From an uncultured Candidatus Saccharibacteria bacterium (GTDB lineage: Bacteria > Patescibacteriota > Saccharimonadia > Saccharimonadales > Saccharimonadaceae): DNA of 64,000 nt. The notes below the pieces were generated by a model. The model saw nothing but the letters and a program-made list of their open reading frames with translations, searched no databases and was not told the DNA's origin. Every line of letters begins with the position of its first letter. Within the stretch, counting starts at the first letter, position 1. Made by a program: the position numbers and the translations under genes. The stretch covers positions 5,222-69,221 of the forward strand of contig CAYYYH010000001.1 of the NCBI GenBank assembly GCA_964476395.1, in the 5' to 3' direction. Positions 17,062-45,945 of the stretch are shown piece by piece.

Positions 17062-17391
17062 TTAAAACTCCAATCCTTCCTTACGAGCGGCTTCCGCAAC
17101 AGCGGACATACGCCCAGCGTATAGTTTTGAACCACGGTCAAAAACGACCTTCTTGATTTTAGCGGTTTTTGCCTTCTTGGCAATTTCTTCACCAATTTTA
17201 GTAGCTTTTTCCGTCTTGGTGCCGGTCATTTTTGTGCCTACCGTAGTAGCGTAGACCAAAGTTGCTTTTTTATCATCATCAATAATCTGCGCAGTAATGT
17301 GCTGATTCGAAAAATGAACCGAAAGCCTTGGCCTATCAGCCGTGCCATGAATCTTAGCACGAGTTCTTTTTGCTCTAAAAATCTTATTCAT
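17062..17391 (-). CDS. rplR: 50S ribosomal protein uL18
   Basis: RPRLSVHFSNQHITAQIIDD, VVFDRG, AARKEGLEF. Confidence 0.97.
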   Translation of the reverse strand: MNKIFRAKRTRAKIHGTADRPRLSVHFSNQHITAQIIDDDKKATLVYATTVGTKMTGTKTEKATKIGEEIAKKAKTAKIKKVVFDRGSKLYAGRMSAVAEAARKEGLEF

Positions 17392-17927
17392 TATTTTTTA
17401 CCAGCCTTTCCTGCCTTACGAAGGATCACTTCGTCGACATACTTAATGCCTTTACCCTTGTAAGGTTCCGGCTTCTTGAGGCTACGAATCTCAGCTGCCA
17501 CTTGACCAACTTTTTGCTTGTCAATTCCTGAAACGGTAATCTCCATTTTGTTGGTAGAAAGCTGTACACCTTCAGGCGCCTTATACTTGACTGGATGTGA
17601 AAACCCAAGCGCCATCTCGATTTCTTGTCCACCACCAGAAAGGCGATAACCTACGCCGTTAATCTCTAGTTTTTTCTCGTAACCTTTAGTTACACCTACA
17701 ACGGCATTATTAATTAGTGCCCGTTGCAAACCGTGCCAAGCACGGGATTTTGGCTCGTCATCCTCACGGGTAACGGTCAAGATGTTGCCATCGATTTTAA
17801 CCTTAGTTTTCGGCTGAACCGGGACGATGAGCTGACCCTTCGGGCCCGCAACAGTAATCTCGCTGTCGCCGACCGTGATTGTCACTCCCGCCGGAATCTC
17901 GATGGGTTGTTTTCCGATACGACTCAT
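17391..17927 (-). CDS. rplF: 50S ribosomal protein uL6
   Basis: MSRIGKQP, GPKG, LGFSHP, PEPYKGKGI. Confidence 0.98.
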   Translation of the reverse strand: MSRIGKQPIEIPAGVTITVGDSEITVAGPKGQLIVPVQPKTKVKIDGNILTVTREDDEPKSRAWHGLQRALINNAVVGVTKGYEKKLEINGVGYRLSGGGQEIEMALGFSHPVKYKAPEGVQLSTNKMEITVSGIDKQKVGQVAAEIRSLKKPEPYKGKGIKYVDEVILRKAGKAGKK

Positions 17928-44857: not shown

Positions 44858-45029
44858 TTTGTACTCCTTCGCTCTAGATTTAATGCTAGAATTGCCGTCA
44901 TTATACCACACCTGTCAAACAGGGGCAACGATAAGCGTCTTCAAAGACAACAAAAACAACTCCACTTTAACCAAGAGCATCATCAAAATAACCACAAATT
45001 TTTCAAAACACCCCGAAGCAACTTTCCCC

Positions 45030-45058
45030 TTGACAATTCCACTTCCAACCTGTATCAT
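45030..45058 (+). promoter_or_regulatory. Promoter driving candidate antisense sRNA
   Basis: TTGACA-17-TATCAT with no plus-strand ORF downstream. Confidence 0.75.
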
Positions 45059-45064
45059 TAAATC

Positions 45065-45136
45065 ATAAGGAATATAGCGTTAGGAACTATATTCTAGTTG
45101 GTTGGTTCTAACCGGTCTTACCGGTTAGAATTTTTT
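45065..45136 (+). ncRNA. Candidate ~70-nt two-hairpin antisense RNA
   Basis: GAATATAG-9-CTATATTC hairpin; terminator TTCTAACCGG-TCTTA-CCGGTTAGAA-T6; overlaps 3' end of 29-aa ORF. Confidence 0.6.
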
Positions 45137-45207
45137 CTTCGGCTTCCTCGCCGTACTGAGAGTTTTACAGTAATCCGAATCCGCCATAACGAAAACTTTA
45201 TACTCAT
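45118..45207 (-). CDS. 29-aa basic peptide, candidate type I toxin (below ORF-track cutoff)
   Basis: MSIKFSLWRIRITVKLSVRRGSRRKNSNR*; AAAGGAGG just upstream (short spacing); stop lies in the loop of the sRNA terminator. Confidence 0.5.
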   Translation of the reverse strand: MSIKFSLWRIRITVKLSVRRGSRRKNSNR

Positions 45208-45491
45208 CTTCCTCCTTTCCGAACTTCTGGCATACCTAACATAGCTGTTTAATGAAGCTCCACACCCGCACGAATGCTCTATGGCACATTCCTACTGTTT
45301 TCAAACCCACTAAACTCCGAAGCCAACCCGACATTATCTAAACACACCTTAAAATCTTAATCAACCCCTCTTCAACTAAAATTGAAGCATAAGAATTGTG
45401 CAATCTGTTATTTCACCATTAATCCTTCCGCTTAACTAAACCATAAAAACTTTTTCAAAAAGCACGAGAAGCTTTCTGTAGACTCGAAAAC

Positions 45492-45540
45492 AAAAAAGCA
45501 GGGGGGCAGAATTTCTTCTACCAGGCCCTGCTATTTTTTT
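45492..45540 (-). terminator. Terminator after rpsH
   Basis: AGCAGGG/CCCTGCT stem extended by GGTAGAA-GAAA-TTCTGCC, followed by T6 on minus strand. Confidence 0.8.
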
Positions 45541-45543
45541 AAC

Positions 45544-45945
45544 TTACCAAACCTTCACCAAGATCTCACCACCCAACCGATTCTTCTTCGCTTCGCGGCC
45601 AGTCATTAAGCCCTTCGAGGTAGATACAATGATCATACCGCGTCCAGATTTAATCGTCGGCAAATCGTCCGCACTAGAATACACGCGACGACCCGGCTTA
45701 GACACCTTAGAAATCTCGTTGATTTTTGCAATAGCACCCGGTTCGTTGATGACGACACGGAGCATTCCACGTGGCGAACCATCGACAATTTCAAAGCTAG
45801 AAACGTAACCGTTCTTGACTAAAACTTCTACTACACCAGCCTTCAGCTTAGAAGTCGGGACGAGGATTTCATTTTTGCCAACTAGTACCGCATTGCGAAT
45901 TCGCGTGATGAGGTCTGCAATTTGATCAGTTGATTGTATAGACAT
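45544..45945 (-). CDS. rpsH: 30S ribosomal protein uS8
   Basis: [32 protein letters not shown]. Confidence 0.98.

Follow-up and report, generated by a model that had tools for sequence, protein, structure and literature searches.

Most type I toxins are hydrophobic peptides with a transmembrane α-helix (PMC12390103). In the txpA/RatA, yonT/SR6 and bsrG/SR4 systems, the duplex formed by the toxin mRNA and its antitoxin is cut (PMC3834814, PMC12390103), and the 3′-overlapping antitoxin of bsrG/SR4 both drives mRNA decay and blocks translation (PMC3834814). Type I systems were previously known only from Proteobacteria, Firmicutes and Tenericutes, and a first cyanobacterial candidate has been proposed (PMC12390103). 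In the literature, no paper was found that links type I toxin–antitoxin systems to Saccharibacteria or to the candidate phyla radiation (CPR).

The par locus of the Enterococcus faecalis plasmid pAD1, encoding the Fst mRNA RNA I and the antitoxin RNA II, is transcribed convergently and has an antisense RNA of ~65-75 nt. The two RNAs share one bidirectional terminator and interact at the terminator loop via U-turn (YUNR) motifs, while direct repeats add 5′ complementarity to the translation start region; the 5′ region of the toxin mRNA is structured. In hok/sok of plasmid R1 and aapA1/IsoA1 of Helicobacter pylori, long-distance pairing between the 5′ and 3′ ends closes the full-length toxin mRNA. 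The antisense RNA of these two systems targets the 5′ region or the translation start, and activation of the mRNA needs 3′ processing.

The cassette analysed here comes from an uncultured Candidatus Saccharibacteria bacterium with a genome of 677 kb (98.9% complete). It is probably a type I toxin–antitoxin-like module with a non-membrane, β-amphipathic peptide as putative toxin, a reading to which we give a probability of roughly 0.6 on the strength of sequence comparison; its two-gene architecture is very probably real. Within the window, i.e. the whole stretch of 64,000 nucleotides that was analysed, the cassette is located in a 683-bp spacer between rpsH and the gene for an 1811-aa VWA/Cna_B/SpaA surface protein, hereafter the adhesin. 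The whole unit covers ~45030-45364, roughly 330 bp, and consists of two convergent genes. Read along the sense strand, its parts are a promoter, the conserved 5′ end GGGTTGGCTTCGGAGTTTARTGG, a ~120-nt leader, GGAAAGGAG with the ATG and the short ORF, an A-run with hairpin 1, the linker CAACCC with hairpin 2, and the promoter of the opposite strand. A preliminary description had confined the module to 45030-45216, which is right for the 3′ half, while the mRNA promoter and the leader extend to ~45364; it did not include the 120-nt leader, a separate promoter and terminator for the mRNA, or the two further copies that the genome contains. The features are as follows:

45544-45945, minus strand: rpsH
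ATG at 44860, minus strand: adhesin gene, on the same strand as the peptide ORF
45333-45364, minus strand: promoter of the peptide mRNA, with the family-conserved -35 region GGGGTTGA at 45364-45359
45060-45329, minus strand: peptide mRNA of ~270 nt with predicted ends, starting with the conserved 5′ end GGGTTGGCTTCGG and finishing with hairpin 2 and a U-rich tail
45329-45323, minus strand: 5′ strand of helix P1, GGGTTGG, pairing with the linker CCAACC at 45105-45100
45322-45317, minus strand: 5′ strand of helix P2, CTTCGG, pairing with CCGAAG at 45142-45137, inside the last codons of the ORF
45247-45315, minus strand: leader hairpin P3, in which GTTTAGTGG (45315-45307) pairs with TCATTAAAC (45255-45247); its apical part is variable
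45235-45241, minus strand: leader element (T)GTTAGG, forming a pseudoknot with the hairpin 2 loop CCTAAC at 45084-45079
45218-45211, minus strand: Shine-Dalgarno (SD) sequence AAAGGAGG, whose GGAGG ends 3 nt before the ATG
45118-45207, minus strand: peptide ORF of 29 codons, encoding MSIKFSLWRIRITVKLSVRRGSRRKNSNR of subfamily B
45106-45130: hairpin 1, 10 bp and a 5-nt loop with the stop codon (45120-45118), stem of the antisense terminator
45070-45094: hairpin 2, which serves the mRNA as a terminator-like 3′ hairpin with a conserved YUNR-type loop and the antisense RNA as its 5′ hairpin
45065-45139, plus strand: predicted antisense RNA of 75 nt, two hairpins and a U-run
45030-45058, plus strand: antisense RNA promoter TTGACA-17-TATCAT, agreeing with the consensus at 11 of 12 positions

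The ORF, which the preliminary description had reported as missed by the gene track, is indeed present at 45118-45207 (minus strand) with its SD upstream, and the conservation that was to be checked extends across the family: the frame is open in every copy over 21-32 codons, with SD and ATG conserved, and GGAAAGGAG represents the SD region conserved family-wide. The distance of 3-4 nt between SD and start codon had been raised as a possible argument against translation. Short spacing recurs in most of the subfamily B copies listed, for example L042, L046, L052 and L064, and on this comparison it is a trait of the family and no defect. The encoded peptides can be divided into three subfamilies:

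Subfamily A: MTIQINLLCIIFP followed by RKRRSKKS, 22-27 aa, the two other copies of the genome
Subfamily B: M-x-I-K-F-S-L-W-R-I-x-I-T-V-x-L-S-x-R-R-x-S-R-R-K-K, 22-32 aa (mostly 28-31), with the window copy as a typical member
Subfamily C: MFQIALIIxNRxKDxKPKKKD, 20-25 aa, other genomes

The ratio pN/pS is 0.29 in frame for subfamily A, compared with 0.60 and 2.68 in the other frames (48 distinct sequences), and 0.38 in frame for subfamily B, compared with 0.87 and 1.65 (25 distinct sequences). Codon position 2 is the least variable, and Arg9 of subfamily B is written by both CGN and AGA codons. By these measures the peptides are under purifying selection and the ORF is a predicted real gene. 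One subfamily B copy (L046:1627-1692) contains a premature TGA that removes the basic tail, and its antisense promoter is intact.

Profiles of Pfam and NCBIfam gave no match to the peptides at E-values up to 10. A search of 1.84 billion protein representatives returned ten matches, nine of which are longer, mis-called ORFs that contain the peptide; the tenth, a 7,228-aa protein without an aligned stretch, is taken as false. The four of these ten that were looked up are all unnamed. The mean Kyte-Doolittle hydropathy of residues 2-19 is 0.39, with K4, R9, R11 and K15 inside the hydrophobic stretch, and the β hydrophobic moment is 2.1-3.1 compared with an α moment of 0.9. The internal charges, the hydropathy and the low α moment agree with the earlier view that this is not a classic helical type I toxin. 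The N-terminus had also been called β-hairpin-like: the alternating hydrophobic/polar pattern is borne out by the β moment, but the hairpin fold is not, as AlphaFold2 models the 30-mer as one helix (pLDDT 77). The modelled helix conflicts with the β-type periodicity, and neither is trusted as a structure. The peptide is classed as cationic and β-amphipathic, with no transmembrane helix. Its basic tail is partly dictated by RNA, with CCGAAG forming P2 and the A-run forming the antisense U-run; the latter (45131-45136) encodes Lys and Asn on the mRNA and is the U-run on the antisense RNA.

The opposite-strand promoter TTGACA-17-TATCAT and the two-hairpin RNA that it would drive, with the stop codon of the peptide in the terminator loop, had both been noticed from the letters and are both recovered. 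The predicted antisense RNA is complementary over its full length to the mRNA's 3′ end, including the last seven sense codons and the stop codon. A 79-nt RNA of the plus strand folds into two hairpins with -24.6 kcal/mol (z = -3.8 relative to shuffled sequences), and a terminator scan calls a 13-pair stem with a T-run at 45104-45132 (plus strand). Each of the 49 modules examined in full has the convergent promoter immediately past hairpin 2. From 42 of these, a two-hairpin RNA with a U-run could be extracted, 65-93 nt and mostly 70-78 nt long, in the order 5′ hairpin, GGGUUGG linker, terminator hairpin and U-run; in the remaining seven, the U-run search cut the antisense RNA short. The antisense -10 element is near-invariant (ATTATA columns of the 49-sequence alignment A3), with a mean score of 5.4 out of 6 in 88 modules, and the whole-promoter mean is 9.6 out of 12 for the antisense compared with 8.9 out of 12 for the sense promoter.

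Internal G·U wobbles tell which strand each hairpin belongs to. Across 88 modules, hairpin 1 has 20 in the antisense and 3 in the sense orientation, which implies that it folds in the antisense strand and forms the terminator there. For hairpin 2 the counts are 125 in the sense and 14 in the antisense orientation, which assigns its folding to the mRNA, where it is the 3′ hairpin. In this way, the 5′ hairpin of the antisense RNA doubles as the terminator-like stem of the mRNA, and its loop sequence is identical, not complementary, to the leader hexamer. A gene for RNase III is present in the genome (138 bits).

The promoter of the peptide mRNA is called by the promoter scan as TTAAGA-16-GATAAT at 45360-45333 (minus strand). 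With 9 of 12 matches, it is weaker here than in the two other copies of the genome (11 of 12); a -35 GGGTTGA is invariant in the five-sequence alignment A1. Downstream of it, the locus scores 121.5 bits with the covariance model R1, which comprises the leader and the start of the ORF. The leader engages in long-distance pairings with the 3′ part of the mRNA, and these covary. In alignment A3 (49 sequences), P2 is paired in 84% of cells, with double compensatory changes in four of six pairs, and P3 in 95.2% of cells over nine pairs, three of which change on both sides. The pseudoknot is paired in 93.8% of cells and shows both-side changes in all seven pairs; its family consensus is TCTAGG:CCTAGA, of which the window copy carries the compensated version GTTAGG:CCTAAC. 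Taken over all 22 pairs, 91.7% of cells are paired and 14 pairs show double changes. When the 3′ partners were slid by 1-3 columns, only 37-57% of cells were paired, and the observed values were not attained in any of 500 shuffles of the complete 22-pair structure.

Helix P1 reaches at least five contiguous base pairs in 84 of 87 modules, with a mean length of 6.3 bp compared with 4.7 bp for shuffled linkers. Partner swaps scored by duplex energy are weakly significant for P1 and P2 (p ~0.03 and p ~0.09, respectively) because the strands of both helices are mostly conserved, and column-wise counting is clearer. By this comparison the predicted mRNA folds shut, its 5′ end being paired with the 3′ end of the ORF (P2) and with the linker (P1). 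In a nested-structure model, the accessibility of the SD was the same with the 3′ end blocked or free (6.6 versus 6.5 kcal/mol, p = 0.37), so that control of translation by refolding is unsupported.

Of 151 genomes assigned to the genus Candidatus Nanosyncoccus, 46 match R1, with one to six copies each, and weak matches with the same architecture were also obtained from three further genera of this family. As ORF, antisense promoter and hairpins are found again in ~90 distinct cassettes from other genomes, these features are not due to chance; related records are of gut origin, from ruminants and other hosts. When 185,579 species genomes were scanned with an exact pattern, 62 matches emerged, comprising 59 true cassettes and three chance hits. 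Of the true cassettes, 58 are in Saccharibacteria or Ca. Nanosyncoccus records and one is in a metagenome-assembled genome (MAG) labelled 'uncultured bacterium'. A 16-nt pattern with one mismatch allowed performed no better than its reversed control, with chance matches inside genes. In a BLAST comparison of the spacer with relatives, the sole match was a short stretch upstream of the ORF, and complete look-alike units, on the strand of the ORF, were recognised by reading the loci of relatives that this stretch had matched. Ten metagenome contigs with an identical S8 protein carry a spacer that is identical except for one extra A and an N-masked stretch; as same-strain contigs are identical, they offer no within-species variation to use as evidence.

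The source genome contains three cassettes, i.e. the window locus, one where contig 8 begins and one where contig 10 ends. The latter two (contig 8:137-445, plus strand, and contig 10:29100-29400, minus strand; loci L136/L137) belong to subfamily A (MTIEINLLCIIIP...). Both are located at contig ends, and they share 93% identity over 487 bp. Upstream of them is a repeat of ~52-71 bp that is also found at the ends of contigs 6 and 20, which indicates that the assembly is broken by these repeats. A decayed copy in another genome of the genus (L023:1446-1520) retains just the sense promoter and the first ~35 nt of the leader.

The conserved minus-strand RNA was also considered as SRP RNA or 6S RNA. 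This identity is rejected because the RNA bears a coding signature, is multi-copy and is patchily distributed. Across the whole genome, no match at E-values up to 1 was obtained with the Rfam models of 6S RNA and of the small and large bacterial SRP RNAs; the SRP RNA may be missing from the assembly or, in this lineage, have diverged beyond the reach of the models. The cassette RNAs match no Rfam family, the lone hit being an unrelated eukaryotic lncRNA family at an E-value of 1.7, and ARAGORN found no tRNA or tmRNA in the cassette region.

Family-wide, the downstream gene points the same way as the cassette in 24 cases and the opposite way in 27, and the 103 flanking proteins match 108 Pfam families. 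The commonest neighbour, RecJ/DHH, accounts for six cases that are taken as one orthologous site. In the source genome, a large gene on the same strand follows all three copies, encoding the adhesin, a P-type ATPase and LeuRS. The random orientation and the unrelated neighbours mark the cassette as an autonomous unit and not as a leader or attenuator of the gene downstream. The preliminary description had seen in it an addiction module at the edge of a 27-kb island. The comparison lends no support to this idea: the surroundings of the 62 matches consist of housekeeping genes unrelated to one another, their 25 commonest Pfam families include neither an integrase nor a transposase, and in a comparison with 13 relatives of the genus the cassette adjoins rpsH in the source genome only.

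In the region 17391-45543, an insertion divides the ribosomal protein operon, with rpsH on one side and the presumed rplF (17391-17927) and rplR (17062-17391) on the other; the latter two were identified by tblastn synteny with the genes of relatives downstream of S8 and not by Pfam. The insert of ~27 kb contains genes for glycan synthesis, adhesins and defence. The gap between rpsH and rplF is 5-23 nt in all eight other families of the order and exceeds 1.5 kb in 10 of 13 genus relatives, which makes the S8-L6 junction a recurrent insertion site in the genus. In one relative (L147:1900-2330), the S8-L6 spacer is 431 nt long and contains a 37-codon ORF with an SD; in our own reading of the sequence, the encoded peptide has a signal-peptide-like hydrophobic core, and it is unrelated to the cassette. 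Directly after rpsH, at 45480-45540 (minus strand), a GC-rich hairpin (CAGGG...CCCTG) is followed by TTTTTTG. By eye it is terminator-like and would end the truncated ribosomal operon, but it failed the terminator scan. On the other side of the cassette, a promoter-like site with an upstream TG (TTGCCC-17-TATAAT, 44928-44900, minus strand) lies ahead of the adhesin gene. This site and the antisense RNA promoter point away from each other, ~100 bp apart, and may share or compete for the upstream region.

Several of these observations could be accommodated by a cassette that is not a toxin–antitoxin pair. We consider it unlikely, if well worth keeping in mind, that the ORF encodes a benign micropeptide, e.g. 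one that binds the ribosome, nucleic acids or the envelope, whose level is tuned by the antisense RNA. A cationic peptide with no membrane helix and no match to a toxin family would suit such a function, the neighbours are housekeeping genes with no mobile elements seen, and purifying selection is expected of any useful protein. A housekeeping peptide should, however, be found in most genomes, whereas the cassette is patchy (46 of 151), varies from one to six copies in unrelated contexts and has diverged into three subfamilies. Moreover, the locking of the mRNA and the constitutive-looking antisense gene, seen in every copy examined in full, are hallmarks of type I systems.

The varying copy number of a ~330-bp unit that is always intergenic and in unrelated contexts would also befit a selfish mobile element of the MITE/REP kind, with RNAs and an ORF that serve its own spread or persistence and no cellular role. 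The near-identical copies at contig ends of the source genome (93% over 487 bp) and the orphan 5′ fragment L023 in another genome point in the same direction. That this is the main explanation is very improbable: no transposase or integrase is found nearby, and the ORF, both promoters and the RNA pairings are under selection, unlike those of passive repeats; selfishness also overlaps with a toxin–antitoxin function and is compatible with it. We give hardly any credence to the minus-strand RNA being a non-coding RNA or a leader/attenuator of the downstream gene, here the adhesin, with the ORF as an incidental or leader peptide. Its strong structure, the terminator-like hairpin at its end and the large same-strand gene after each of the three source-genome copies would agree with this; the near-equal split of downstream orientations (24 versus 27) over genes of unrelated function, the adhesin's own promoter-like site at 44928-44900 and the lack of an Rfam match do not, and translation is favoured by the frame specificity of pN/pS and by the conservation of SD and ATG.

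If the cassette is a type I toxin–antitoxin-like module, as we prefer, the antisense RNA would contact the mRNA by loop–loop kissing at the YUNR-type loop of hairpin 2. The antisense loop, having the same sequence as the leader hexamer, would there compete with the pseudoknot for the hairpin 2 loop. Zipping would then yield a 75-bp duplex, RNase III would cut it and peptide synthesis would stay off, while the closed 5′-3′ fold would keep the full-length mRNA poorly translatable. Once the antisense RNA falls, the peptide would be made and the cell harmed or arrested. A more far-reaching version of this proposal, offered tentatively and with the odds somewhat against it, is that the cassettes form a superfamily new to the phylum, with a non-membrane, cationic β-amphipathic toxin directed at a new kind of target, in which the leader/terminator-loop pseudoknot holds the mRNA inert and the antitoxin RNA opens the lock by mimicking the leader element.

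Saccharibacteria are epibionts with genomes of ~0.7 Mb, yet many of them keep up to six cassettes. This copy number suggests a role in genome stability, stress arrest, phage defence or the interaction with the bacterial host. The peptide does not resemble known toxins and may for this reason act on a new target. The covarying pseudoknot between leader and terminator loop would represent a compact natural RNA switch, and the invisibility of the cassette to gene callers illustrates a blind spot of annotation.

Measured against the definition of type I systems, which asks for a toxin gene of less than ~60 aa, the cassette has a small predicted gene (29 codons, with SD, ATG and pN/pS as given above) and, in silico, an antisense RNA as antitoxin; its peptide lacks the transmembrane helix. 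On these sequence grounds it is regarded as a type I-like variant. It is not filed as a member of any described family because the membrane helix is missing and there is no homology to the described families.

The convergent, 3′-overlapping layout proposed in the preliminary description is strongly supported by the comparative data and matches the bsrG/SR4 type of Bacillus (PMC3834814). As in bsrG/SR4, txpA/RatA and yonT/SR6 of Bacillus subtilis (PMC3834814, PMC6562991, PMC5848175), the genes for a small peptide and an antisense RNA converge and overlap at their 3′ ends. Further likenesses are the first contact expected at a loop, the availability of RNase III and an mRNA that is highly folded around the SD. 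The cassette differs from the Bacillus systems in having no sequence, Pfam or Rfam relationship to them and an overlap of merely ~75 nt. Its peptide of 29 residues is cationic and β-amphipathic without a transmembrane helix, its phylum is Saccharibacteria (CPR), and it possesses a covarying pseudoknot that connects the 5′ leader to the loop of its own 3′ hairpin.

With par, the cassette shares convergent transcription, a short antisense RNA, a YUNR loop and a structured 5′ region of the mRNA. Unlike par, it has two hairpins, each mainly strand-specific, and a peptide that is not Fst-like; its leader element is identical to the antisense loop and pairs with the hairpin 2 loop of the mRNA itself. 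In hok/sok and aapA1/IsoA1, the antisense RNA acts at the other end of the message, whereas that of the cassette covers just the 3′ end of the mRNA. What the cassette has in common with these two systems is a 5′-3′ pairing, by P1 and P2, that closes the mRNA around the ORF, and this closure would be expected, as in hok and aapA1, to keep the mRNA inert and to hide the target of the antisense RNA.
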